Shown: piece after piece, positions 8,437 through 30,320 of the stretch
Position numbering within the stretch: position 1 is the stretch's first letter
Layout: each line of letters begins with the position of its first letter
NCBI RefSeq assembly: GCF_011045215.1
Contig: NZ_CP049201.1
DNA: 64,000 bases
Strand: one strand, 5' to 3'
From: Escherichia coli
Lineage (GTDB): Bacteria; Pseudomonadota; Gammaproteobacteria; Enterobacterales; Enterobacteriaceae
The notes under the pieces: generated by a model
What the model was told of the DNA's origin: nothing
Databases searched by the model: none
The model's input: only the letters and a program-made list of their open reading frames with translations
Program-made: the position numbers and the translations under genes

Positions 8437-9512
8437 ACGACAATGTCACGCTACGGGTAAATGGCCGGGAGTGGAATGGCTGGACATCGGTGCGCATCGG
8501 TGCCGGTATTGAACGGCTGGCGCGGGATTTCAGTGTGGAGATCACCCGCCAGTGGCCGGGTGATGAGGGTATCACCACGCTTCAGCCGCGCATTAAAAAC
8601 GGTTCAAAAGTGGAGGTGCTGATTGGTGATGAGCTGGTGATCACCGGCTGGGTGGAGGCGACGCCCGTTCGTTACGATGCCCGTTCGGTCAGCACCGGTA
8701 TTGCCGGACGTAGTCTGACGGCTGACCTGATTGACTGTGCAGCCGAACCGACACAGTTTAACGGACGCTCGCTGGTGCAGATTGCGCAGGCGCTTGCTGC
8801 GCCTTTCGGCATTGAGGTGGTGAACAGCGGTGCGCCGTCGGGTGTTATTCCTGATGTTCAGCCTGATCACGGTGAAACGGTGATTGAGGTAATCAACAAA
8901 ATACTCGGTCAGCAGCAGGCACTGGCTTACGACGATCCGCACGGCAGGCTGGTGATTGGCGGTATTGGCTCAACGCGGGCACATACCGCGCTGGTACTTG
9001 GGGAAAACATCCTTTCCTGCGATACGGAGAAGAGTATCCGGGAGCGGTTTTCAGTTTACCAGGTGGCGGGGCAGCGTGCCGGAAACGACGATGATTTCGG
9101 TGAGGCCACCACCACCGCGCTGCGGGCCCGCACAGAGGACGCATTTATTGCCCGTTACCGTCCGATGTATATCAGGCAGACAGGGCAGGCCACGGGGGCT
9201 GGCTGTATTGCGCGTGCTGACTTTGAAGCCCGGCAACGGGCGGCGCGGACGGATGAAACCACCTATGTGGTGCAGGGCTGGCGACAGGGTAACGGTACGC
9301 TGTGGCAGCCCAACCAGCGGGTGATTGTCTTTGATCCGGTCTGTGGTTTTGACAATACCGAACTGCTTGTTTCGGAAGTCACGTTTACTCAGGACCAGAA
9401 CGGCACCCTGACGGAAATCCGTGTCGGCCCGCCTGATGCTTATCTGCCTGAACCCGATGCCCCCGGCGCGCAGAAAAAGAAAAAAGCCAGAGTACAGGAG
9501 GACCCGTTCTGA
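8433..9512 (+). CDS. baseplate hub / tail protein (Mu P/gp44-like, P2 gpD-like)
   Basis: 359 aa; overlapping-start gene chain within the baseplate module. Confidence 0.7.
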   Translation: MNDNVTLRVNGREWNGWTSVRIGAGIERLARDFSVEITRQWPGDEGITTLQPRIKNGSKVEVLIGDELVITGWVEATPVRYDARSVSTGIAGRSLTADLIDCAAEPTQFNGRSLVQIAQALAAPFGIEVVNSGAPSGVIPDVQPDHGETVIEVINKILGQQQALAYDDPHGRLVIGGIGSTRAHTALVLGENILSCDTEKSIRERFSVYQVAGQRAGNDDDFGEATTTALRARTEDAFIARYRPMYIRQTGQATGAGCIARADFEARQRAARTDETTYVVQGWRQGNGTLWQPNQRVIVFDPVCGFDNTELLVSEVTFTQDQNGTLTEIRVGPPDAYLPEPDAPGAQKKKKARVQEDPF

Positions 9513-10060
9513 TGAGGACGATTGAAGCCATGCAGCGACAACTTCTCGGCCTGATTGGGCGGGCAGTGGTGAAAAGTATCAGCGCCGCCACGAAATGTCA
9601 GACCGTGGATGTGTCCCTGATTGCCGGTGAACCCAAAGCCGGGGTTGAACATCTTGAACCCTACGGTTTTACCGCAAGGGCAAACAGCGGTGCGGAAGCG
9701 GTGGTGTTGTTTCCGGATGGCGACCGTTCTCATGCGGTGGTTGTTACGGTGTCGGACCGGCGCTACCGCCTGAAAGGGCTGCAGACGGGTGAGGTGGCTG
9801 TCTATGACGATCAGGGGCAGTCTGTGACGCTGACCCGGGAGGGGATCGTGGTGGACGGTGCAGGTAAAACGATCACGTTTCGCAATGCGCCCAGAGCACG
9901 TTTTGAAATGGACCTTGAAGTGACCGGACAGGTGAAAGACCTGTGCGACTCCGGCGGCACTACCATGTCAGCGATGCGGCTTGCCTATAACGGGCATCGT
10001 CACAGAGAGAACGGTCAGGGCAGTAACACCGACAAACCTGATAAAGCGATGGAGGCATGA
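9512..10060 (+). CDS. baseplate assembly protein V (spike, Mu gp45-like)
   Basis: 182 aa; position between the hub and gp46-like genes. Confidence 0.7.
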   Translation: MRTIEAMQRQLLGLIGRAVVKSISAATKCQTVDVSLIAGEPKAGVEHLEPYGFTARANSGAEAVVLFPDGDRSHAVVVTVSDRRYRLKGLQTGEVAVYDDQGQSVTLTREGIVVDGAGKTITFRNAPRARFEMDLEVTGQVKDLCDSGGTTMSAMRLAYNGHRHRENGQGSNTDKPDKAMEA

Positions 10061-10485
10061 TGGAACTGTGGCTGACGGTGAACGGTAAACGCACCTGCGC
10101 CAGCGCACCGCTGGATCCGCTGACCCGCGCCGTGGTGATTTCCATGTTTACCTGGCGGCGGGCGGAGCCTGATGACAACGCCGACGTCCCGATGGGATGG
10201 TGGGGGGATACCTGGCCTGCGGTACAGAATGACCGTTACGGCTCCCGACTGTGGCTGCTTCAGCGCAGCAAACTGACCAATCAGCTGGTGCAGACGGTAA
10301 GGGGGTATATCCGCGAATGCCTGCAATGGATGATTGATGACGGCGTGGTGTCCCGTATTGATCTGGATATCCGCCGCACCGGGATTAATGAGCTGGGTAA
10401 CAGTATCACCCTCTGGCGTCGTGACGGACCGATAATGATTTCTTTTGATGATCTGTGGAGTGCGATAACGCATGGCGGACAGTGA
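10057..10485 (+). CDS. phage GP46 family baseplate protein
   Basis: 142 aa; baseplate module position. Confidence 0.7.
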   Translation: MMELWLTVNGKRTCASAPLDPLTRAVVISMFTWRRAEPDDNADVPMGWWGDTWPAVQNDRYGSRLWLLQRSKLTNQLVQTVRGYIRECLQWMIDDGVVSRIDLDIRRTGINELGNSITLWRRDGPIMISFDDLWSAITHGGQ

Positions 10486-11530
10486 ATTTCAGCGCCCGAC
10501 GCTGGCAGAAAATATCAGTATGCTCCGTAACGATTTATTCGCCAGGCTGGACGTCAGCGACACGCTCCGGCGCATGGATGAAGACGTGCGGGCAAAGGTG
10601 TATGCGGCGGCGCTGCATACGGTTTACGGTTACATCGATTATCTGGCAATGAACATGCTGCCTGACCTGTGCGATGAGTCCTGGCTGGCGCGACATGCTG
10701 CGATGAAACGGTGTCCGCGCAAGGGGGCCACGGCTGCCAGCGGGTATATGCGCTGGGAAGGTGTCAGCGATGGCCTGAAGGTGACCGCCGGGAGCGTGAT
10801 TCAGCGCGCTGACCTGGTTCAGTACACGGCAACTGCTGATGCAACCAGCTCCGGTGGTGTCCTGCGCGTGCCGATCACTTGCTCAAGTGCAGGCGCGGTC
10901 GGTAACGCTGACGACGGTACGGCATTAATCCTGGTCACGCCGGTGAATGGTCTGCCGTCTTCCGGTGTTGCAGATACCCTGACTGGCGGATTCGATACTG
11001 AAGATCTGGAAACGTGGCGCGCCCGCGTCATTGAGCGGTATTACTGGACGCCTCAGGGCGGGGCTGACGGGGACTATGTCGTCTGGGCTAAAGAAGTGCC
11101 CGGCATTACCCGCGCATGGACATACCGTCACTGGATGGGAACGGGAACTGTCGGTGTGATGATTGCCAGCAGTGACCTGATTAATCCCATTCCGGAAGAA
11201 TCAACGGAAACGGCGGCAAGACAACATATCGGGCCACTGGCCCCGGTGGCAGGCTCTGATTTGTATGTGTTCAGGCCGGTGGCACATACGGTGGATTTTC
11301 ATATCCGCGTGACGCCGGACACACCGGAAATACGGGCTGCCATCACCGCGGAGTTGCGTTCGTTCCTGCTGCGTGATGGTTATCCGCAGGGAGAACTGAA
11401 GGTATCGCGTATCAGTGAGGCGATTTCCGGTGCGAACGGGGAATACAGCCATCAGTTGCTTGCACCGGCAGACAATATCTCCATTGCAAAAAATGAACTG
11501 GCGGTTCTGGGGACGATTTCATGGACGTGA
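10472..11530 (+). CDS. baseplate J-like protein (Mu gp47 / e14 JayE-like)
   Basis: 352 aa; size and sequence character of the baseplate J family. Confidence 0.85.
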
Positions 11531-12105
11531 CAAACGATGATTACATCCGTCTGTTGTCGGCACTGTTGCCCCCCGGTCCGGCGTGGTCAGCCAGCGATCC
11601 GGCGATTGCCGGTGCGGCACCGTCATTAACCCGTGTTCATCAGCGTGCGGATGCCCTGATGCGGGAGCTGGATCCGCGCACAACCACCGAACTGATAAAC
11701 CGCTGGGAGCGTCTGTGCGGCCTGCCGGATGAATGTATTCCGGCAGGGACGCAGACCCTTCGCCAGCGTCAGCAACGGCTGGATGCGAAGGTTAATCTGG
11801 CGGGCGGCATCAATGAGGATTTTTACCTTGCACAGCTTGCTGCCCTGGGCAGACCAGACGCCACCATCACGCGATACGACAAAAGCACGTTCACCTGCTC
11901 ATCTGCCTGTACTGACGCGGTGAATGCGCCGGAATGGCGGTATTACTGGCAGGTCAACATGCCAGCCGCCACCAACACCACCTGGATGACATGTGGCGAT
12001 CCCTGTGATTCCGCACTGCGTATCTGGGGCGACACCGTAGTCGAGTGTGTGCTTAACAAACTCTGCCCGTCGCATACCTACGTAATTTTTAAATATCCGG
12101 AGTAA
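11521..12105 (+). CDS. YmfQ-like tail protein (DUF2313, Mu gp48-like)
   Basis: 194 aa with a Cys-rich C-terminus; position directly upstream of the tail fibre gene, as in e14. Confidence 0.75.
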
Positions 12106-12108
12106 TCC

Positions 12109-12642
12109 ATGCATCGTATAGACACGAAAACCGCGCAGAAGGATAAGTTCGGCGCGGGTAAGAACGGTTTTACCCGTGGTAACCCCCAGACCGGCACACC
12201 TGCCACCGATCTGGATGATGACTACTTTGACATGTTGCAGGAGGAGCTTTGCAGCGTGGTGGAGGCATCCGGTACCAGCCTGGAGAAGGGGAGGCATGAC
12301 CAGTTGCTTACCGCACTTCGCGCGCTGCTGTTAAGCCGCAAGAATCCGTTTGGCGATATCAAATCGGACGGCACGGTGAAAACGGCTCTCGAAAACCTTG
12401 GTTTGGGAGAAGCGGCAAAACGGGATGTGGGGACAGGGGAAAATCAGATACCGGACATGGCCTCTTTTGCCAGTGGTGATGGATGGATGAAATTACCCAA
12501 CGGGAAAATCCTGCAATATGGTCGTGGTGCGGTTACGCCGACATTATCGACGCAAACAATGAGAATTACATTCAGCATCCCTTTTCCTAAAAAGTGGACT
12601 GCGCCATGCTTACTCATTCTGGTGATGGTGGTGCGCCTTTAG
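12109..12642 (+). CDS. tail fibre protein: constant N-terminal part fused to the currently selected short variable C-terminal part
   Basis: 177 aa; contains the left crossover site encoding ...ENLGLGE...; the variable part may carry a frameshift near 12585-12600 (alternative frame reads ...[26 protein letters not shown]). Confidence 0.7.
12386..12411. repeat. left crossover site of the Pin-type invertible segment
   Basis: CTCTCGAAAACCTTGGTTTGGGAGAA: fits the Gin/Hin/Pin site form (TTNTCNNAAACC-NN-GGTTT...); inverted copy of the site at 14288-14313 (17/18 identical in the shared half). Confidence 0.7.
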
Positions 12643-18069: not shown

Positions 18070-18115
18070 ATTCGTAATGCGAAGGTCGTAGGTTCGACTC
18101 CTATTATCGGCACCA
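18070..18115 (+). tRNA. partial tRNA-Thr (thrW) 3' fragment (pseudo-tRNA / att core)
   Basis: ATTCGTAATGCGAAGGTCGTAGGTTCGACTCCTATTATCGGCACCA equals the 3' 46 nt of thrW as recalled; the 5' half is replaced by unrelated sequence. Confidence 0.7.
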
Positions 18116-18280
18116 TTTCAACGTCTTTTCCCGTCTATTAAAATCCAAAAAACCCGCATATACTCTAGCTTTGAGCGCCCCCGATAGTGTTTTAACGTCT
18201 ATCAATATCTCCTAAAATCCACGTCTTTTGGGGGTATATTCGGGGGTATATGCTGTGTGGGCTACTGGAGATACCCCCAA

Positions 18281-19471
18281 ATGAAACTAAATGCCCGTCA
18301 GGTCGATACGGCCAAACCGAAAGAAAAACCCTATAAACTGGCCGATGGTGGTGGGCTTTATCTGCTTGTTAATCCCAATGGTTCCCGGTACTGGCGTTTA
18401 AAGTACCGGGTAGCCGGAAAAGAAAAGCTGTTGGCGCTGGGGGTATATCCCGATGTAACCCTGGCTGATGCCAGGGCGAAACGAGATGAGGCCAAAAGGG
18501 GTATGGCTGGGGGGATCGACCCGAACGAAGCGAAGCGGGAAGAAAAATTGAACCGCGAAGCGCAAATCAAAAACACCTTCGAAGAAATCGCCAGAGAGTG
18601 GCATACAGAACGGCAGAAGAAATGGTCTGAGGGGTACGCCTCGGACATTCTGGAAGCATTCAGTAAAGACATATTCCCTTGGATTGGAAAACGCCCCATC
18701 ACGGAAATAAAGCCCCTTGATTTGCTGAATACGCTTAAACGCATCGAGAATAGGGGAGCGACTGAAAAGGCCCGTAAGGTTCGCCAGTGGTGCGGGGAGG
18801 TCTGGAAGTATGCGATCGTTACCGCCCGCGCAGAATATAACCCCGCCCCTGATCTATCTGTGGCTATGGAAGGACACGAAGGGGAGCACTTCCCCCATCT
18901 GGAAGCCGAAGAGTTACCCGAATTTTTCCAGACGCTGGCGACGGCAAAAAGTAACGTTCAGGTTATTTTGGGGCTGCGTCTGCTTATTCTTGTGGGGTTA
19001 CGTCCGGTTGAATTACGCGCGGCCCCGTGGTCAGAGATTGATTTTGATAATGCCTTGTGGGAGATCCCCAAAGAGCGAATGAAGAAAAGACGTCCGCACG
19101 TTGTCCCGCTTTCTCGCCAGGCTATGGTTATTCTCGGGCAATTAAAAGAGTTGTCGGGCCGCAATCCTTTCATTTTTCCGGGCCGGAACGACCCGCGAAA
19201 GCCAATGAGTGAAGGAGCAATTAATCAGCTAATAAAGCGACTCGGGTATAAGGGCAAAGCTTGCGGGCATGGTTTCCGACATACCATGAGCACAATTTTG
19301 TATGAGAAAGGGTATAACACCGAATGGATCGAAACCCAGCTTGCACATGTTGATAAAAATACCATCCGTGGCACATATAATCATGCCCGCTATCTGGATG
19401 GACGCCGGGAAATGCTTCAATGGTATGCCGACTATATGGAATCGCTGGCGAGTGGCAGGGTAAAAGATTAG
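18281..19471 (+). CDS. P4-type tyrosine integrase
   Basis: MKLNARQVDTAKPKEKPYKLADGGGLYLLVNPNGSRYWRLKYR... is the canonical P4/CP4 integrase N-terminus; C-terminal HxxR...Y catalytic region present; lies 165 bp after the thrW fragment. Confidence 0.9.
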   Translation: MKLNARQVDTAKPKEKPYKLADGGGLYLLVNPNGSRYWRLKYRVAGKEKLLALGVYPDVTLADARAKRDEAKRGMAGGIDPNEAKREEKLNREAQIKNTFEEIAREWHTERQKKWSEGYASDILEAFSKDIFPWIGKRPITEIKPLDLLNTLKRIENRGATEKARKVRQWCGEVWKYAIVTARAEYNPAPDLSVAMEGHEGEHFPHLEAEELPEFFQTLATAKSNVQVILGLRLLILVGLRPVELRAAPWSEIDFDNALWEIPKERMKKRRPHVVPLSRQAMVILGQLKELSGRNPFIFPGRNDPRKPMSEGAINQLIKRLGYKGKACGHGFRHTMSTILYEKGYNTEWIETQLAHVDKNTIRGTYNHARYLDGRREMLQWYADYMESLASGRVKD

Positions 19472-19547: not shown

Positions 19548-20041
19548 TATCATTTTCAATGAATTATGATTTTGGAAATTTTATAAAAAACACCAAGATT
19601 ACTAATCTATTGATTAATATGAAATATTTCTTTTTTTGATTATTAATTGTGCTCTTGATTGTTGTTTTTATGGTGTTAATTTATAAAAATCTTATTTATA
19701 GGAATTAACATTATATAGTTGGCACTTTTTGCTAAAATCTGTTTTTATTGTGTTTTATTTTTATTTCATTTTTGTTGTTGTTTGTTTGATTTTTAGTGTC
19801 TTTATATCTGGCTAATTGATTTCACTCAAACCATAAATCCTTTCAGAGGCTTCTAGAGTCTTCCTGAGGCTTAAATTGACTTAACTAAAAGTCAAGCCCC
19901 ACATCCCACATACATCTTTTTGACATGCACTTATGGCGTGAATAACAATGACTTCATCCAATCTACAGGCATCCTATAAAGTCAATGTCTGTATATAGAA
20001 AGATATTACATAACGTTTGAATGTTAATAGCGGGTGTGAAT

Positions 20042-20260
20042 ATGAGAAATGATGCAATGCAGCTTTTAAACCAGGGAAAAAGATTGATCCGCCTGCCTGA
20101 AGTTATGATGCTTACGGGGCGGTGTCGCGCCAGTATTTATAAAGATATCAATGCAAATGTCTTTCCAAAGCCGATTAAAACCGGCCCGCGTTCTGTCGCA
20201 TGGGTTGAGGGTGAGATCAGCGACTGGATCGACAACAAAATCAAAGAGCGCAAAGTGTAA
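20042..20260 (+). CDS. alpA: AlpA-family phage regulatory protein (excisionase-like)
   Basis: ...RLIRLPEVMMLTGRCRASIYKDINANVFPKPIKTGPRSVAWVEGEISDWI... matches the AlpA pattern; start is ambiguous (20042 or 20057). Confidence 0.75.
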   Translation: MRNDAMQLLNQGKRLIRLPEVMMLTGRCRASIYKDINANVFPKPIKTGPRSVAWVEGEISDWIDNKIKERKV

Positions 20261-21341: not shown

Positions 21342-22349
21342 ATGTCTTATGTAACACCAGATTATTTAACGCAGTATCACGAAAACCTGATTAAGTCTTT
21401 TAATATTAAATATAAAAACGAAGATACGGGGTATTTCACCATATCACAGCCGGAAAAAGCATCTCCGGATGCATGGGGATGTTCCACGCTTGATGTTAAA
21501 GGCTCGTCCTGGCTGATTGATAATATTTCATTACTGGACATTATCGGTGCGGATGGCACGACGATCACCATCGGTGATGGTTCCCTTTATACAGGCCGTG
21601 CAAAGGAAGGTCGCTTTCATAAGAAACTAAAAACCAACGGAACACCTTTTTTATTATCAGAAACGGATTCCTGCGCCTCATTGACTTATGAAGAAATGGC
21701 GGTAATGGCAAACGCGAAAAATTTCAGTAATGAAATGATCATTTTTTTCAAGAAGGCCGTGGTGCGGGATATGCTCCGTATTGGATTTAACGGCAAGATG
21801 ATTGCCGAAAATACCAACCCGGAACAATATAAAAACGGCGAAGATATCAATATTGGCTGGCACTCGCTGGCAAAAACATTCAATAACGGTTCACAAATTA
21901 TTTCTGATGCTTTCGCACTGGGGAAAGGCGGTGATTTTGCCGATGTTCACGATCTGGCTGATTGCCTCATCACGTCAAAAATCCCCGAAGGTCAGCGCGA
22001 AGATCCGGGCCTTGTGGTGATGGTTGGCGCGCAACTTGCCGCCCGCGAACGACTGAAACTGTTCAACATGGCCGATCAACCACTGACGCTGACGGCGGGG
22101 GATATGCTGACAAGCAGTGTCGCCGGTCGCTTTGCTTTTATCCCGCCGTTTATGCCGGGTAAGCGCCTGGCTGTTACGACGCTGAAAAATTTGCAGATCC
22201 TGACGCTGAAACACAGCCAACGCTACCGCGCGGAGGATATCCCGCAACGAGGTGTTTATGAGCATGGCTATTTACGTGAGGAAGGTTACGCGCTGGGGGA
22301 TGGCTATCTTTACGCGGCCAGCGATGAGAACGCCGTAACGCTGGTTTAA
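21342..22349 (+). CDS. P2 GpN-family major capsid protein homologue
   Basis: Segment LGKGGDFADVHDLADCLITSKIPEGQREDPGLVVMVGAQLAA parallels P2 gpN VGKGGDYASLDALVMDATNNLIEPWYQEDPDLVVIVGRQLLA (recalled from memory); FNGKM... also parallels gpN FNGVK... Confidence 0.6.
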   Translation: MSYVTPDYLTQYHENLIKSFNIKYKNEDTGYFTISQPEKASPDAWGCSTLDVKGSSWLIDNISLLDIIGADGTTITIGDGSLYTGRAKEGRFHKKLKTNGTPFLLSETDSCASLTYEEMAVMANAKNFSNEMIIFFKKAVVRDMLRIGFNGKMIAENTNPEQYKNGEDINIGWHSLAKTFNNGSQIISDAFALGKGGDFADVHDLADCLITSKIPEGQREDPGLVVMVGAQLAARERLKLFNMADQPLTLTAGDMLTSSVAGRFAFIPPFMPGKRLAVTTLKNLQILTLKHSQRYRAEDIPQRGVYEHGYLREEGYALGDGYLYAASDENAVTLV

Positions 22350-22753: not shown

Positions 22754-22769
22754 GCTGGAAACTCTTAAG

Positions 22770-22870
22770 TGTTTAAACATCAGTAAAGATACAGTAAAGC
22801 CGGACATAACAAAACTGTTTAAACAAAATCTGTTGACTTGTTTAAACACTCAGCATAATGTGTTTAAACA
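22770..22870. promoter_or_regulatory. operator array: four copies of the palindrome TGTTTAAACA within divergent promoters
   Basis: Exact copies at 22770-22779, 22816-22825, 22839-22848 and 22861-22870; TTGACT (22833-22838) and CATAAT (22854-22859) hexamers interleave with the right-hand pair. Confidence 0.6.
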
Positions 22871-24310: not shown

Positions 24311-24580
24311 ATGTCTGATTTGAATACCATTGCTGTTAATAGTGCTGAAAAATATCTTAGCCTTGAGTGCTTCCATAAACTCAACCGCGCAAGGAATGTT
24401 TCATTCCAGATGCATTTACAGATCCGTCAGTGTGAGATAAACGGCCTGCCACTTTTATGGATTCCAGATATTTTCAGCTATATCAGCGAAGACATATCCG
24501 CCGTTCTGGAAGAAGCCAAAGTACTTGGCCTTTGCGATAAGTTCACAGGCGAAGCCCGGATCGGTCAGGTCAGTCTTTAA
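24311..24580 (+). CDS. hypothetical protein (89 aa)
   Basis: Same strand, between the coupled operon and the primase gene. Confidence 0.45.
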   Translation: MSDLNTIAVNSAEKYLSLECFHKLNRARNVSFQMHLQIRQCEINGLPLLWIPDIFSYISEDISAVLEEAKVLGLCDKFTGEARIGQVSL

Positions 24581-24643
24581 TTTTTTGTATTCCGCGCCGC
24601 CCGCTGCGGCGCATTGTCTTACCCATTAATAAAGGTCATACCG

Positions 24644-27376
24644 ATGCAAGGTAAAAAAGTTTCACAGACAGCAGGACGCGCGGCGGGCCAGTGGGAAAAT
24701 ATTCTTGAACACCTGGGGATTACTGTTCCTGCGGGTGGTCTTCATGGCCCCTGCCCGATCTGCGGCGGTAAAGATCGTTTTCGCTTTGATAATAAAAAAG
24801 GGCGTGGAACCTGGTTCTGCAACCAGTGCGGCCACGGTGACGGGCTGGATCTGGTCAAACTGGCGCTTTCGCTGGACACCGGGCCAGCCGCTGATCGAGT
24901 TGCTGAATTACTTCCGGCCCTTCCTCCGCCTGCGGTCATGCAGCCTGCCAGAAAAGAAGCCAGTGACGAAGGTCGCCCACATGACTACTGGCAACGCCTC
25001 TTTGCCCGTACTCAGCCGGGGGAAAGCCCTTACCTTACGGCGCGGGGGCTGACAGGTTTTGAACTGCCGCTGACCGTTCAGGAGATGAAAACCGCTGGCG
25101 GTGTTTTTCCGGCTGGTTCGCTTTTATTACCGATCACGGACACCGAAGGACGGATGACCGGTGCACAGCTTATCGGCCCGGACAAGGTAAAAGGCTTATG
25201 TGCTGGCACCAGGAAAAAAGGGCGTTTTATCTCTGTCGGGCCGTTCCCGGAGAAAATGCCCGCGCGGATCATTATCTCGGAAGGCTTTGCCACTGCGTTA
25301 AGCGCATCCCTGCTTTCAGAGGGCTGGAGTATTGCGGCGCTGGATAAAGGCAACCTGAAAGACGTTGCGGAGCAAATCCGCCAGAAATGGCCGGACGTGC
25401 AGATCGTTATTGCCGGTGATAATGACTTTTCTGACGGTAAACCCAATCAGGGGAAAGAGTCTGCGATCAAAGCTGCACTGGCCGTTAAGGGATGGATGAC
25501 CATTCCTCCCGGACGGATCAAAGTTGACTGGGATGATTACCGCCGTGAATTTGGCCTCCAGCGCGCCCGTGACGCATTCGCGGAAGAACTGCTTAACCCG
25601 GCAGACACCGAAACGCGTTTACCGCATGGTTTCCGCCTGACGAAGGATTATCTTTGGTTTGATCGCCCGCTCAGTGACGGTAGCGAAAGCGGCCAGACTC
25701 GCCAGGTGAAGATATGTAGCCCGCTCAAAGTGACGGCCATCACCAGCGACGGCGAAGGCGGTAAATTCGGGCGTCTGCTTGAGTGGGAAGACTCCAGCGG
25801 ATTACGGCATGAATGGGCGATGCCAATGACAGTGCTTGCCGGAAGCGGTCAGGAGCTGCGGGAGGTTCTGCTTGATAACGGAATGCACTTTATCAGCGTG
25901 AACGGCGCGGCGCGTAGCTATCTGATGGAATACATTTCTAACTGTCGCCCGGTTCGCCGCGTCACCTGCGTTGAAAAAACAGGCTGGTTTAGCGGTGCGT
26001 ATGTTCTCCAGGATGAGGTGATCGGCAGCGATGCCGGATCGGTCATCCTCCAGTCTGCTATGTCGTCTAAAAATGACTTCCGGGTGAGCGGAACGGTGGC
26101 GGAATGGGCGCAACACGTCGGGCGCTATTGTGCCGGAAATTCCCGCCTGGTGTTCTGCGTCAGTCTGGCGCTGGCCGCGCCGTTACTGAATATTATTGGT
26201 GTTGGCGGCGGCGGTTATCACCTTAAGGGCGAATCCACGGACGGCAAGACAACCACAATGAAGGTAGCGGCGTCTGTCTGCGGCGGGCCTGATTTCTGGA
26301 AAACGTGGCGGGCAACCGGAAACGCGCTGGAAGGTATTGCGCTACGCCGTAATGATGCCGCCCTGATGCTGGATGAAATCAGCGAAGTTGACGGCAGAGA
26401 GGCTAGCCGGATCGCCTATATGCTGGGGAACGGGCAGGGCAAAGCAAGGGGGCGCGTTGATGGCAGCGTCCGCGATCCGGTGACCTGGACATTGCTTTAC
26501 CTGTCCACCGGGGAAATCTCTATTGCGGAACATGCCGCCGAAGCCGGAGAAAAGCGAACCGGCGCGGGTGTCGGTGTGCGTATGGTGCAAATCCCCAGCG
26601 ATACCGGAAAACATGGCGCTTTCGAAAATCTCCACGGCATGGAAGGCGGTAAAGCGTTTGCGGAATACCTTGAACAGACCTGTAAACAATATTACGGCGC
26701 GCCGTTCCGCGAATGGTTGCGCTGGCTGGCGGCAAATCTGACGGAAACCGCGAACCGGGCGCGGGCAATGAAAAAAGAGTATGAACGGACATTATTACCC
26801 GAAGATTCCGGCAAGCAGGTTGGGCGCATTGTGGATCGCTTTGCACTGTTGGCCGTTGCGGGGGAACTGGCGAGTGAAGCGGGGATCACAGGCTGGCAAC
26901 CAGGAGAAGCGTATAACGCTGCAAGAAGCTGTCTGGCGGCATGGCTTAACGATCGTGGACATGCGGCCAACCAGGAAGAAGCCGACGCGCTGGAGAAGGT
27001 GCGGCGCTTTATTACGGCCAATCAGTACACACGCTTTGCTGACTGGTATGACGAGAAAAACCGCCCGTCAAATATGGTTGGCTTTCGCCGGGTGGAGAAA
27101 GGCGGGAACGGTATTGGCATGAGCAAAAAGGAGAACAGCGGCGATACTGTTAAAGACGGGGACGCCACTAAAGAGCCGGAAACCACATTTTATATCCTGC
27201 CCAGCGGATGGAAGGAAATTTGCGGGACGTCGGACAGCGTTAAAACGGCGAGACTATGCGACGAGGCTGGATGGCTTGTAAAGGATGAAGATCGCCAGCG
27301 CCTACAACGTACAGTAAGACTACCGGAAATTGGCTTAAAGAAAGTGTATGTGTTCAGCGGCGAAGTGATCGGATAA
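24644..27376 (+). CDS. P4 alpha-type DNA primase/helicase (zinc-binding, Toprim and P-loop helicase domains)
   Basis: CPICGGKDRFRF...WFCNQCGHGDG zinc motif; Toprim-like IISEGFATALSA...IAGDNDF; Walker-type region further downstream; true start ATG 24644 (the track ORF begins at a TTG). Confidence 0.9.
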   Translation: MQGKKVSQTAGRAAGQWENILEHLGITVPAGGLHGPCPICGGKDRFRFDNKKGRGTWFCNQCGHGDGLDLVKLALSLDTGPAADRVAELLPALPPPAVMQPARKEASDEGRPHDYWQRLFARTQPGESPYLTARGLTGFELPLTVQEMKTAGGVFPAGSLLLPITDTEGRMTGAQLIGPDKVKGLCAGTRKKGRFISVGPFPEKMPARIIISEGFATALSASLLSEGWSIAALDKGNLKDVAEQIRQKWPDVQIVIAGDNDFSDGKPNQGKESAIKAALAVKGWMTIPPGRIKVDWDDYRREFGLQRARDAFAEELLNPADTETRLPHGFRLTKDYLWFDRPLSDGSESGQTRQVKICSPLKVTAITSDGEGGKFGRLLEWEDSSGLRHEWAMPMTVLAGSGQELREVLLDNGMHFISVNGAARSYLMEYISNCRPVRRVTCVEKTGWFSGAYVLQDEVIGSDAGSVILQSAMSSKNDFRVSGTVAEWAQHVGRYCAGNSRLVFCVSLALAAPLLNIIGVGGGGYHLKGESTDGKTTTMKVAASVCGGPDFWKTWRATGNALEGIALRRNDAALMLDEISEVDGREASRIAYMLGNGQGKARGRVDGSVRDPVTWTLLYLSTGEISIAEHAAEAGEKRTGAGVGVRMVQIPSDTGKHGAFENLHGMEGGKAFAEYLEQTCKQYYGAPFREWLRWLAANLTETANRARAMKKEYERTLLPEDSGKQVGRIVDRFALLAVAGELASEAGITGWQPGEAYNAARSCLAAWLNDRGHAANQEEADALEKVRRFITANQYTRFADWYDEKNRPSNMVGFRRVEKGGNGIGMSKKENSGDTVKDGDATKEPETTFYILPSGWKEICGTSDSVKTARLCDEAGWLVKDEDRQRLQRTVRLPEIGLKKVYVFSGEVIG

Positions 27377-27419
27377 GACCTGCTGACACCGCTATAACTA
27401 ACGGTGTTGGCCAGCTTCC

Positions 27420-27700
27420 GGCCCTGGAAACATAGCCAGCCAGGAAGAAGTGATCGCACGTATCATATTTTTTAGTGGAAACAGTGGGAACATAGGGAAC
27501 AGACTTGATTTATAAAGGTTTTATTTGTTCCCAATTACTGTTCCCATATGGTAACAGGTGGTAATGTATTTTAAATCATATGGTTATGTTGATATGCAAA
27601 GCGTTGTTCCCAGTTGTAAAAGAGAGATGGGAACAGGAAAAAGGTATAAATATCAACACTGTTACCATTGTTCCCACTGTTTCCACCATTTTTGACAATA
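27420..27700. repeat. iteron cluster (GGGAACA / TGTTCCC heptamers), putative replication origin or cis replication region
   Basis: At least 7 exact copies in both orientations plus variants (GGAAACA, TGTTACC, TGTTTCC) within about 280 bp directly after the primase gene; resembles P4 ori/crr TGTTCACC iterons. Confidence 0.55.
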
Positions 27701-27724
27701 ACAATATTTAATTTCGGGGAAAAT

Positions 27725-27741
27725 GCTTTTCCCTGGCTGGC
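27725..27741. repeat. 17-bp direct repeat, left copy (GCTTTTCCCTGGCTGGC)
   Basis: Exact copy of 30005-30021; lies 20 bp upstream of the P2-like integrase start. Confidence 0.5.
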
Positions 27742-27760
27742 TAACATCAAAGGTAAAGAA

Positions 27761-28726
27761 ATGAGCATTAAGAAACGTCCTGATGGAAAATGGCTGGTAG
27801 ATATGCGGCCCGCAGGTCGTAAAGGAAAACGTATTCGCAGGGTTTTTAACAGGAAATCGGAGGCCCTGGCATTTGAGATGTATTACCTGGTCCGTTCTCA
27901 ATCGCCGGAATGGGCAACGAACTTCACAGACCGCAGATTATTAAGCGATTTGCGTAAAACATGGTGGGACCTGTTTGGACACGCCAGAAATAACGCAGAA
28001 ACTGAAAAGCGCCAGCTTGATAAAACCATCCGGCAGATGGGAGATCCACCAGTTAACCGGCTTACAATCCGCTTCATTCTGGAATTCAGAGCAGGCCGTG
28101 TTTCAGGGAAATTAAAGGCATCCACGATAAATCGCGATATGTACCGGTTATCAGGCATGTTTACCGAATTAATTAAAGCAGGTGAGTGTAAAAATAATCC
28201 GTTCCGTAGTCTTGAACCGTTAAAGGAAGAACCTTCCGCAGTAACGTTTCTGACCCACGAAGAAATTAGCATGTTACTGGAAAAACTGGAGGGAGATTCG
28301 CGTAAGCTGGCGTTACTGTGTCTTAATACTGGGGCGCGTTTCAGTGAAGCCGCGAATCTAACGGCTGAAATGGTTAACAACCGTCGTGTAACGTTTATTA
28401 AGACAAAGAACGGGAAGCAGCGGACAATACCCATTTCATCTGAACTCGAAAAGGAAATAAAAACAAAAAATTCAGGTCAACTTTTCACGGTGGATTATAA
28501 ATGGTTTTCCCGCAGGTTGAAGGCAATCAAACCGGATTTACCGGATGGACAGGCAACGCATGTATTACGACATACTTTCGCCAGTCATTTCATTATGAAT
28601 GGGGGAAATATTGTTGTATTAAAAGAGATTCTTGGACATGCCAATATTCAGCAAACTATGATTTATGCACACTTTGCGCCTGAATTTCTGGCGCAGGCTG
28701 TAACATTGAATCCATTTAGTAAGTAA
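27761..28726 (+). CDS. P2-like tyrosine integrase
   Basis: MSIKKRPDGKWLVDMRPAGRKGKRIRRVFNRKSEALAFE... parallels P2 Int MAIKKLDDGRYEVDIRPTGRNGKRIRRKFDKKSEAVAFE (from memory); C-terminal HxLRHTFASHF...Y region present. Confidence 0.85.
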   Translation: MSIKKRPDGKWLVDMRPAGRKGKRIRRVFNRKSEALAFEMYYLVRSQSPEWATNFTDRRLLSDLRKTWWDLFGHARNNAETEKRQLDKTIRQMGDPPVNRLTIRFILEFRAGRVSGKLKASTINRDMYRLSGMFTELIKAGECKNNPFRSLEPLKEEPSAVTFLTHEEISMLLEKLEGDSRKLALLCLNTGARFSEAANLTAEMVNNRRVTFIKTKNGKQRTIPISSELEKEIKTKNSGQLFTVDYKWFSRRLKAIKPDLPDGQATHVLRHTFASHFIMNGGNIVVLKEILGHANIQQTMIYAHFAPEFLAQAVTLNPFSK

Positions 28727-28754
28727 CTGCGGATTTTCTTTTGAATGTACAAAA

Positions 28755-29012
28755 CTAACGTTGAAGTAATTCTTTCATGACCGTTTTTTGTTCCGGCGTC
28801 ATCATGTCAATCATTGTTTTTACTGCTTTATCCCCAGTCAGAGCGCTGGGGCTTAGCGTATGGGAGAACGTCATATTCATAACGAAGGTATGCCCACATT
28901 CAACATTATTACAGGCACAATACATATCAGACAGGTGGGGATGCTTGCGCACTGTCTTTTTTGTTGTTGAATTACTTCCACACTCAGGACAAACAATTTT
29001 ATGGCTGCGCAT
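28755..29012 (-). CDS. Ogr/Delta-family zinc-finger transcriptional activator
   Basis: CPECGSNSTTKKTVRKHPHLSDMYCACNNVECGHTF: a CxxC...CxxxxC zinc finger typical of P2 Ogr / P4 Delta; convergent with the integrase, 28 bp apart. Confidence 0.8.
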   Translation of the reverse strand: MRSHKIVCPECGSNSTTKKTVRKHPHLSDMYCACNNVECGHTFVMNMTFSHTLSPSALTGDKAVKTMIDMMTPEQKTVMKELLQR

Positions 29013-29430
29013 AATAATCACCACTCGTAAAAGGCGCATTATTATACCACTATTTGCATTAAACAAAAAAAAGAAATTGATATAAATTATCAATAATATC
29101 ATCGTGTTATGTCATTCCATTCTTTCTTTGCTTTTAACTTAGTGTCACGCAATTTGATTTTTTTTGTTTTAATTTTCATATGGTTACGTTATTTTGATTA
29201 AAGATTGAATTTTACGATGACTGTAATTATTGAAATCCTTTTCAACTGATTGCATTTTTTTCAGTCTCAAATTTCATGTAAAACCCCGTTTAACGCCTGT
29301 TCTGGCGCTTCTTTCCTGCAATTTTCCAAACTGAAAAAATTCTCACTACGTAAACACCGTGGGCGTGCGGGTGAGCGCGGTTTTGGTCCCGCTGGCGTTT
29401 GCGTCGTAACAAGTCAGAAACATACAACCA

Positions 29431-29495: not shown

Positions 29496-29741
29496 ATGCA
29501 ACACGTAAACTATACCGATGCTCGACAGCATTTAGCTGACCTGATGCAGCAGGCTAATGATGATCGTGCGCCAATCCTGGTTACGCGTAAGGGTGCTAAA
29601 AGCGTAGTAATGATCGATGCGGAAGAGTTCGCATCGATTCAGGAAACGTTACACCTGTTCAGTAACCCGGCGAACGCCGCACACATTGAAGCCAGCCTTG
29701 CATCGCTCGAACGCGGCGATTATGAGGAACTGGACATTTAA
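29496..29741 (+). CDS. type II antitoxin, Phd/YefM family
   Basis: 81 aa; ...RAPILVTRKGAKSVVMIDAEEFASIQETLHLFSNPANAAHI... matches the YefM pattern; 1-nt overlap with the toxin gene. Confidence 0.85.
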   Translation: MQHVNYTDARQHLADLMQQANDDRAPILVTRKGAKSVVMIDAEEFASIQETLHLFSNPANAAHIEASLASLERGDYEELDI

Positions 29742-30001
29742 TGAAAGTCAGGATATCCCCGCAGGCAAAAGGCGATCTTCAGTACTGGGCTGAGAATGAC
29801 CCAAAGACGTATAACAAGGTAATGGAGCTAATCAAATCGGCTAAGGAAAGCCCCTTCAAGGGGATAGGGAAGCCGGAGGCGCTAAAGCATCGTAAGCCGC
29901 TTTGGTCACGTCGAATCACGAAAGAACATCGCCTGGTGTATTACGTTGAGCAAGGCGATCTGTACATTGTTGCGTGTCGCTATCACTACACCACGATTTA
30001 A
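29741..30001 (+). CDS. type II toxin, YoeB/Txe family mRNA interferase
   Basis: 86 aa; ...GIGKPEALKHRKPLWSRRITKEHRLVYYVEQGDLYIVACRYHY is the conserved YoeB C-terminus. Confidence 0.85.
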   Translation: MKVRISPQAKGDLQYWAENDPKTYNKVMELIKSAKESPFKGIGKPEALKHRKPLWSRRITKEHRLVYYVEQGDLYIVACRYHYTTI

Positions 30002-30004
30002 ACA

Positions 30005-30021
30005 GCTTTTCCCTGGCTGGC
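30005..30021. repeat. 17-bp direct repeat, right copy (GCTTTTCCCTGGCTGGC)
   Basis: Exact copy of 27725-27741; begins 4 bp after the yoeB-like stop. Confidence 0.5.
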
Positions 30022-30320
30022 GGGTTTACCTTAACTTTGCCAGCACTGTTTAAACGCCCGCCGCTCTCTCCCAAATACAGTATAAAAAGCAATCAATTAT
30101 TGTGGACGTAAAAGCGCATGGGGGTACAATTGGGGGTACGTTGGTTATCCATTATGTAATAAATTCATAATAAACATGGTGTTATATTGCATGTTTAACT
30201 CTTATTATCTACCCCATATTCAAATACACCACGTTTCCTCCTGTGCCGTATTTATGCCATTGTAACCCTGGCAATTAATCAAAATACTGTTCTGACATCA
30301 GGCAATGCAGGTGCAGACAT

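Follow-up and report, generated by a model that had tools for sequence, protein, structure and literature searches.

Replication origins of phage satellites and pathogenicity islands

The closest described counterparts of the locus considered here are the Rep-ori systems of SaPIs, especially that of SaPIbov1 (Ubeda et al., 2007, 2012, as cited in PMC9371898 and PMC7581432). SaPI origins comprise 6-12 iterons located directly 3′ of rep, with an AT-rich centre and at least two iterons per side in opposite directions, and the iterons are read by the C-terminal winged helix of Rep (PMC9371898). DUF927 helicases, including Cch, are related to SaPIbov1 Rep (PMC7581432), and Cch2, a related self-loading helicase, binds repeats in the intergenic region just after its own gene (Mir-Sanchis, 2016; Bebel, 2020, PMC7581432). 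In Gram-negative PICIs, two iteron sets flank an AT-rich region directly after rep, and a pri-rep-ori segment of EcCICFT073 was found to replicate a plasmid (Fillol-Salom et al., 2018, PMC6092414). The principle of such origins is well established; no published description of the origins of DUF927-type P4-like satellites was found.

The present locus lies in a 64 kb stretch of Escherichia coli DNA, referred to below as the window, in which an array of short repeats follows a primase-helicase gene. The array very probably represents the single vegetative replication origin of a P4-like satellite of ∼12 kb, bound by the product of the upstream gene, and most likely constitutes a further origin of the SaPI/PICI type and not a new kind of origin.

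The host satellite

The satellite occupies ∼18.1-30.2 kb of the window and is integrated at a fragment of the thrW tRNA gene, with a chromosomal flank that is 98.5% identical to E. coli (Table 1). Positions 18075-18120 presumably represent the 3′ fragment of tRNA-Thr thrW, and no intact tRNA was detected in the window by ARAGORN. At the left end the thrW fragment is followed by a tandem GGGGGTATA pair adjoining the P4-type integrase gene, and at the right end a GGGGGTAC pair precedes a degenerate copy of the last 18 nt of the tRNA, near 30199-30216. Tandem GGGGGTAYA pairs with 12-bp spacing (18227-18250 and 30119-30140) thus mark the two satellite ends. In P4, the annotated attP arm repeats, GGGGGCA pairs, are spaced identically relative to the core, and the GGGGGTAYA pairs are therefore taken as the real arm sites of the satellite integrase. 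An Rfam scan of the whole element gave no match.

The satellite also carries a gene for a full-length P2-family major capsid protein homologue (PHROG 70, E = 4e-72; TIGR01551 below cut-off), which is likewise present in the related loci L001 and L003. Classical P4, to our knowledge, has no capsid gene, and the satellite may supply or remodel its own capsid. The cargo end is occupied by a YefM/YoeB toxin-antitoxin pair, the position of which is taken in relatives by other cargo, namely an St85 retron in L002 and sce7725/sce7726 in L003.

Table 1. Positions in the window of satellite genes, array components and flanking motifs.
Feature	Position	Strand	Remarks
P4-type integrase	18257-19471		
AlpA-like regulator	20021-20260		
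P2-family capsid homologue	21342-22349		
Epsilon-like "derepression" gene	24311-24580		Annotation of L001 places an Icd-like gene upstream of the epsilon-like gene
Primase-helicase (candidate initiator)	24614/24644-27376	+	From 24644: Zn-ribbon and Toprim primase (P4-alpha-like), DUF927 helicase, C-terminal domain
Predicted C-terminal winged-helix coding region	27179-27373	+	About the last 65 aa, FYILPSGWKEIC...VRLPEIG..VYVF; proposed iteron reader
Hairpin (ACACCGCTA/TAACGGTGT)	27386-27407	+	Inverted repeat just 3′ of the primase stop codon; lacks a T-run
Iteron array	27425/27476-27685		
Outlying iteron variant TGGAAACA	27425-27432	+	Within the 85-nt segment missing from relatives
Outer inverted copy of TTTTCCCTGGCTGGC motif	27433-27450	-	Pairs with 27726-27743; 18 nt, 89% complementary, 12-nt perfect core
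Left iteron set	27476-27566		27476, 27485, 27494 (+); 27526, 27539 (-); 27549 (+); degenerate 27559 (+); aligned position by position with L008 and L007
Exact GGGAACA heptamers	27486, 27495, 27629	+	Exact match
Exact GGGAACA heptamers	27526, 27539, 27605, 27669	-	Exact match
AT-rich dyad centre	27567-27604		G+C 0.30-0.32 (60-nt windows) vs 0.45-0.58 in flanking genes; centre of inverted repeat
Right iteron set	27605-27685		27605 (-); 27628 (+); 27660, 27669, 27678 (-, head-to-tail, 9-bp spacing)
Conserved motif AAAATGCTTTTCCCTGGCTGGC	27720-27743	+	Downstream of the array; repeated at 30000-30021
Second integrase (int2)	27761-28726		
ogr/delta-like gene	28755-29015	-	
yefM/yoeB	29496-30001		

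The primase-helicase

The longest open reading frame of the primase-helicase gene begins with TTG at 24614, and RefSeq relatives start at an ATG equivalent to 24644; the annotated homologue in L001 spans 9268-12000. The protein contains the Pfam domains Zn_Ribbon_Prim, Toprim_3 and DUF927 and matches PHROG 1139 (DNA primase). Its similarity to P4 alpha (37% identity by BLASTP) is confined to residues 15-332, and no significant BLASTP similarity to alpha can be detected beyond residue ∼330. In a PDB sequence search, the rest of the protein instead matches 5DGK, the SCCmec Cch helicase, and 8TCH, SaPIbov1 Rep, the latter match (E = 1e-12) being limited to the ATPase core and of low identity. An NCBIfam match to the SCCmec Cch1 helicase falls below cut-off.

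An AlphaFold2 model of the last 175 aa, built on 32 homologues and of moderate confidence (mean pLDDT 73), ends in a strand-helix-helix-hairpin unit. The best Foldseek matches of this model are SaPIbov1 Rep (8TCH), followed by the winged helix-turn-helix protein TcpK bound to oriT DNA (5VFX), with weak E-values (4e-3) though a reported probability of 1.0. The putative winged-helix region varies more between lineages than any other part of the protein. Judged from sequence comparison and the model, the primase-helicase is a chimera in which a P4-type primase is joined to an initiator helicase of the pathogenicity-island type with a predicted C-terminal winged helix.

Anatomy of the iteron array

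The stop codon of the primase-helicase gene (27376) and the ATG of int2 (27761) are separated by 384 bp, in which the array proper extends from 27476 to 27685. Exact copies of GGGAACA/TGTTCCC are unremarkable in total number in the window (10 versus 8.2 expected), with seven of the ten clustered in the 190 bp between 27486 and 27675, where ∼0.02 would be expected at the window-wide density. The original prediction had counted at least seven exact heptamers in both orientations, and this count proved accurate, with three on the plus and four on the minus strand. When one mismatch to the 8-mer TGGGAACA is allowed, 12 sites are found at 27425-27685, the repeat unit being 8-9 nt, (G)TGGGAACA; a degenerate thirteenth site, TGGTAATG (27559-27566), aligns to good iterons in relatives. 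The outlying site begins 49 nt, and the first iteron of the aligned array 100 nt, beyond the stop codon. With seven of its 12 sites exact, the array is more degenerate than that of L008.

The array forms an imperfect dyad, the 82-nt arms of which (27475-27556 and 27605-27686) are 71% complementary. Its outermost iterons comprise three head-to-tail copies per edge with 9-bp spacing, and both sets point inwards. The spacers TTGATTTATAA(A)GG (27503-27525, left) and AAATATCAA (27640-27658, right) mirror each other and are kept in the window, L007 and L008 despite the differing iteron. They may bind a host factor or form part of a wider contact surface for the initiator; inspection by eye revealed no exact match to the IHF consensus in either spacer.

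No second TGGGAACA cluster is present in the window, every other 300-bp stretch holding fewer than three sites with one mismatch allowed. In 450-nt windows, a comparable 7-mer count was reached at just one other place, ∼22.8 kb, where it is due to four copies of an unrelated palindrome, TGTTTAAACA. These copies (22767-22870, spacings of 46, 23 and 22 bp) sit between a leftward YlcI/YnfO-like open reading frame and the Icd-like early genes, which run rightward, and they resemble operators of the satellite switch region. Half-sites of TGTTTAAACA also flank a motif at 29997-30055.

Related loci and repeat specificity

A DNA search of 5426 complete E. coli genomes detected related genes in 917, with ∼67% identity in the helicase part. 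The similarity to these relatives does not extend into the final ∼270 nt of the gene or the intergenic region, and the intergenic DNA that carries the array is present in just 2 of the 5426 genomes and has no match in the phage and plasmid collections searched. A scan of viral contigs supplied 60 further loci, and 45 distinct downstream regions were compared. In ∼40 of these, 5-12 copies of one 7-mer occur within 450 nt of the stop codon, and in nearly all related loci the rest of the locus contains 0-2 copies of the same 7-mer. Of 3084 control windows, only 13 reached six copies. Four distant relatives, with 34-38% identity, showed no clear array. The lineage-specific repeat types number at least eight, including GGTGGAACA in L002, GGTAACA in L003 and GTGGTACA/GTGGGACA in L004, where the array is followed by psu, ogr/delta and an unrelated gene, respectively. 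The layout ">>> < < > | < > <<<" over ∼200 bp nevertheless recurs in most lineages examined, and relatives have an AT-rich gap at the place of the dyad centre. The original prediction that the array is an origin or cis-acting replication region bound by the primase protein gains support from the presence of an array after the homologous gene in ∼40 of 45 relatives, from repeats that change in concert with the protein lineage, and from the predicted winged helix of the SaPIbov1 Rep type.

The window array can be aligned with those of L008 and L007 over the whole length, with conserved spacers, and the repeat core differs between L007 (T) and L008 (G) at 12 of 12 sites; in the window, G is found at seven of 12 sites and variants (GGAAACA, GGTAACA) at the rest. 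L033 and L034 use the repeats GTGGAACA and GTGTAACA, respectively, although they share 98% identity in the helicase core and 92.5% over the final 68 aa. Such concerted change of all copies, together with protein change concentrated at the C terminus, is consistent with what would be predicted for a specific pairing of protein and site. Repeat type also associates with winged-helix sequence, an association that serves as support only, because it is confounded by shared ancestry: the helicase core, too, is more similar within a repeat type.

The same alignments bear on the suggestion that the array is a transcriptional control region, with operators or activator sites for the downstream genes such as the TGT-N12-ACA sites of Ogr/Delta at P2/P4 late promoters. 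The convergent repeat pair TGTTCCCATATGGTAACA (27539-27556) fits TGT-N12-ACA, L002 and L007 have late-promoter-type TGT-N12-ACA sites between the array and psu, and P4 ori lies just upstream of Psid. The fit of TGTTCCCATATGGTAACA is lost at the aligned position in L007 and L008, however, and an Ogr/Delta reading of this one pair was rejected as not conserved. The late-promoter sites of relatives are located outside the array, 3′ of the CCTGGCTGGC motif. No promoter of the sigma-70 type directed downstream was detected, and a 12-site dyad around an AT-rich centre far exceeds the needs of a promoter. A primary role in transcriptional control therefore appears extremely unlikely.

Motifs flanking the array

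The hairpin just 3′ of the primase-helicase gene may act as a transcription stop. A terminator scan 3′ of the gene returned none by the rule of the tool, which this hairpin fails; at the corresponding place in L007, a clear GC hairpin precedes a T-run. The 10-nt sequence GAAGTGATCG is present as a direct repeat, at 27362, where the primase gene ends, and 85 nt further on at 27447, so spanning 27362-27456. The segment that it brackets includes the hairpin, an additional iteron and the CCAGCCAGG motif in inverted orientation and is missing from L002, L003 and L004, which suggests that DNA was inserted, or that recombination left a scar, between the gene and the leader of the origin.

Past the array, the AAAATGCTTTTCCCTGGCTGGC motif marks the limit of homology with relatives that lack the integrase, and is also found 3′ of the L002 and L007 arrays. 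P4 has a similar motif, ttttCCTGGCTTGCC, ∼50 nt past its ori iterons, and CCTGGCT(G/T)GC after the repeats is common to P4 ori, L002, L007 and the window. The motif recurs as a 22-nt direct repeat, AAAnnGCTTTTCCCTGGCTGGC (27720-27741 and 30000-30021, 91% identical), which brackets the int2-ogr-yefM/yoeB block; in L002 and L035 it brackets psu-delta. It may represent a module boundary or a regulatory site. Since CTGGCTGGC alone is a common E. coli 9-mer, with 49 near-matches in the window, only the extended motif of 17-22 nt was treated as meaningful.

The inverted copies of the TTTTCCCTGGCTGGC motif on either side of the array also raised the idea of an invertible switch, in which a recombinase would flip the segment between the 18-nt inverted repeats. 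This was rejected: the orientation is identical in three close relatives, and L007, which lacks the integrase, carries an equivalent flanking inverted repeat.

The adjacent P2-type integrase

The original prediction had also offered the alternative that the array contains attP arm-type sites for the neighbouring P2-family integrase, so that it would assemble an intasome and not a replisome. This was a reasonable proposal, because Int2 is P2-like (53% identity to P2 Int) and P2-type arm sites are short tgTGGaCa repeats, loosely iteron-like (PMC3448106; P2 sequence). Furthermore, TGGGAACA is used by two lineages, the window group and L008, and in both of them, and in no other lineage, a P2-type integrase gene touches the array. 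The repeats do not otherwise accompany an integrase: ∼38 relatives have an array of the same layout 3′ of the primase gene, followed by psu, ogr/delta or other genes, with no integrase nearby, which speaks against the arm-site alternative. In L008 the homologous TGGGAACA array is separated from the primase gene by the integrase gene, which is thus on its opposite side. From about codon 30 onwards, L001 and L006 carry a different integrase allele, which ends at 183 aa without a catalytic domain, and yet their array is still 99.5% identical to that of the window.

The arrangement of the repeats points in the same direction. P2 arm sites are same-orientation direct-repeat pairs on both arms around a core, and arm-type repeats are split between the ends of an integrated element, whereas the array is internal to the integrated satellite (∼9 kb from its left and 2.5 kb from its right end), and the end positions are occupied by the GGGGGTAYA pairs. 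No crossover core or attB match was found at the array, and the gap between int2 and ogr, where attP would lie in P2 style, is 28 nt here versus ∼273 nt in P2. It is thus highly improbable that the array serves as arm sites for Int2, and a function as the satellite origin is preferred.

The int2 gene is convergent with the ogr-like gene (27761-29015), exactly as in P2 (L068), where the order is int → attP ← ogr, and int2-ogr looks like a captured fragment of a helper phage with the attachment site lost. The body of int2 is mosaic, with homology to L001 and L006 breaking at 27848 and resuming at 28761. An ogr/delta gene normally follows the origin, as in L003, and recombination with the ogr-attP-int region of a helper could have brought the integrase in.

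The integrases that touch the array in the two TGGGAACA lineages, downstream in the window but upstream in L008, share 48% identity. That they are functionally tied to the origin, rather than passengers, is unlikely. They might, for instance, supply a recombinase for the TTTTCCCTGGCTGGC motifs on either side of the origin (27433-27450/27726-27743, inverted) and of the int-ogr-toxin block (27720-27741/30000-30021, direct); such an enzyme could serve to resolve multimers of the replicon or to exchange the neighbouring module.

A model for initiation

The sequence-level features of a SaPI origin can all be recognized at this locus. The array lies directly 3′ of the putative initiator gene, as it does in ∼40 of 45 relatives, and contains 12 short iterons and one degenerate copy, of 8-9 nt as against the 5-6 nt quoted for SaPIs. 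Between the iterons is an AT-rich centre (27567-27604), and three plus-strand iterons at 27476-27501 oppose three minus-strand iterons at 27660-27685. A self-loading helicase with a C-terminal winged helix is also predicted, from DUF927, the PDB matches and the moderate-confidence model. An origin mechanism is proposed on this basis, in which we infer binding, melting, helicase loading and origin firing from the characterized SaPI Rep-ori systems.

The primase-helicase would recognize the TGGGAACA repeats via its C-terminal winged helix, and the inward-pointing repeat sets would place two hexamers in head-to-head orientation on either side of the AT-rich centre, which would melt and provide the first strand opening. 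The MCM-like DUF927 helicase could then load itself, and synthesis would be primed by the Toprim primase at the N terminus of the same polypeptide. As satellite lineages differ in their repeat sequence, an initiator would be expected to fire its own origin and no other.

Such a model would locate the replication start of the satellite and the protein most likely to fire it. It also implies that a large group of P4-like satellites departs from the textbook P4 arrangement of ori/crr and alpha helicase, the DUF927 satellites probably using an initiator and origin of the pathogenicity-island type fused to a P4-type primase. For annotation, the origin of a DUF927 satellite would be expected just 3′ of the DUF927 gene. 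The natural repeat specificities, at least eight in number and some of them one base apart at every site with few protein changes, provide material for working out how a winged helix reads DNA, and could predict cross-activation or incompatibility of co-resident satellites.

Comparison with known systems

Like P4, the element is a satellite of P2-like helpers, with short repeats in both orientations that begin TGTTC (P4 TGTTCACC, here TGTTCCCA), a CCTGGCT(T/G)GC motif past the repeats, and a primase whose first ∼320 aa are 37% identical to alpha. In P4, ori is located at 9.1-9.8 kb and crr at 4.3-4.6 kb. The array is placed right after the primase gene, as crr is after alpha, and this position, together with the P4-alpha-like N-terminal primase domain, would suit a crr-like helper region that binds the initiator and stimulates replication in cis while synthesis starts at a separate origin. 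Four features of P4 set it apart from the present locus. The P4 type I iteron, as read from the P4 sequence, is TGTTCACC, in contrast to TGTTCCCA(C) in the present array. In P4, the repeats form two clusters several kilobases apart (ori and crr are 4.5 kb apart), whereas there is one cluster in the 64 kb window, and in related loci the top 7-mers hardly occur elsewhere. P4 crr consists of two 120-bp direct repeats, in contrast to an imperfect inverted repeat with an AT-rich centre and no long direct repeat. Finally, the helicase and DNA-binding parts of the primase-helicase are not homologous to those of alpha. The resemblance to P4 ori and crr is positional only, and a crr-like role with a separate origin is very unlikely. 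The P4 model of ori plus crr, on which the original prediction drew, consequently gives way to a single origin of the SaPI/PICI type, which fits better because only the N-terminal third of the protein is alpha-like, the repeats form one cluster and their layout is a dyad.

SCCmec Cch resembles the putative initiator in that its DUF927 helicase is the best PDB and NCBIfam sequence match. The SCCmec systems differ in that the Cch2 site has just three direct repeats, SCCmec replication is only putative and these elements are not phage satellites.

The EcCICFT073 origin comes from the same host species and has the same iteron and AT-rich layout 3′ of rep, with CTGTCTACC/GGTAGAC repeats in opposed sets (L067, E. 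coli CFT073, 12005-12240). Its iteron is unrelated, and its Rep has no significant BLASTP match to the primase-helicase, so that this system is regarded as an analogue and not a relative. Unlike EcCICFT073, moreover, the present satellite has a P4-type integrase with its arm sites, epsilon-like and Icd-like genes, and ogr/delta.

The SaPIbov1 Rep-ori system shares with the proposed origin described here a location directly 3′ of the initiator-helicase gene, 6-12 iterons in two opposed sets around an AT-rich centre, lineage-specific iterons, and a self-loading helicase of the DUF927 type (SF6/MCM-like) with a C-terminal winged helix, the last being predicted here. It differs in the length of the iteron (5-6 nt versus 8-9 nt), whereas the present system resides in a P4-like satellite of a Gram-negative host and has its helicase fused to a Zn-ribbon/Toprim primase of the P4-alpha type.
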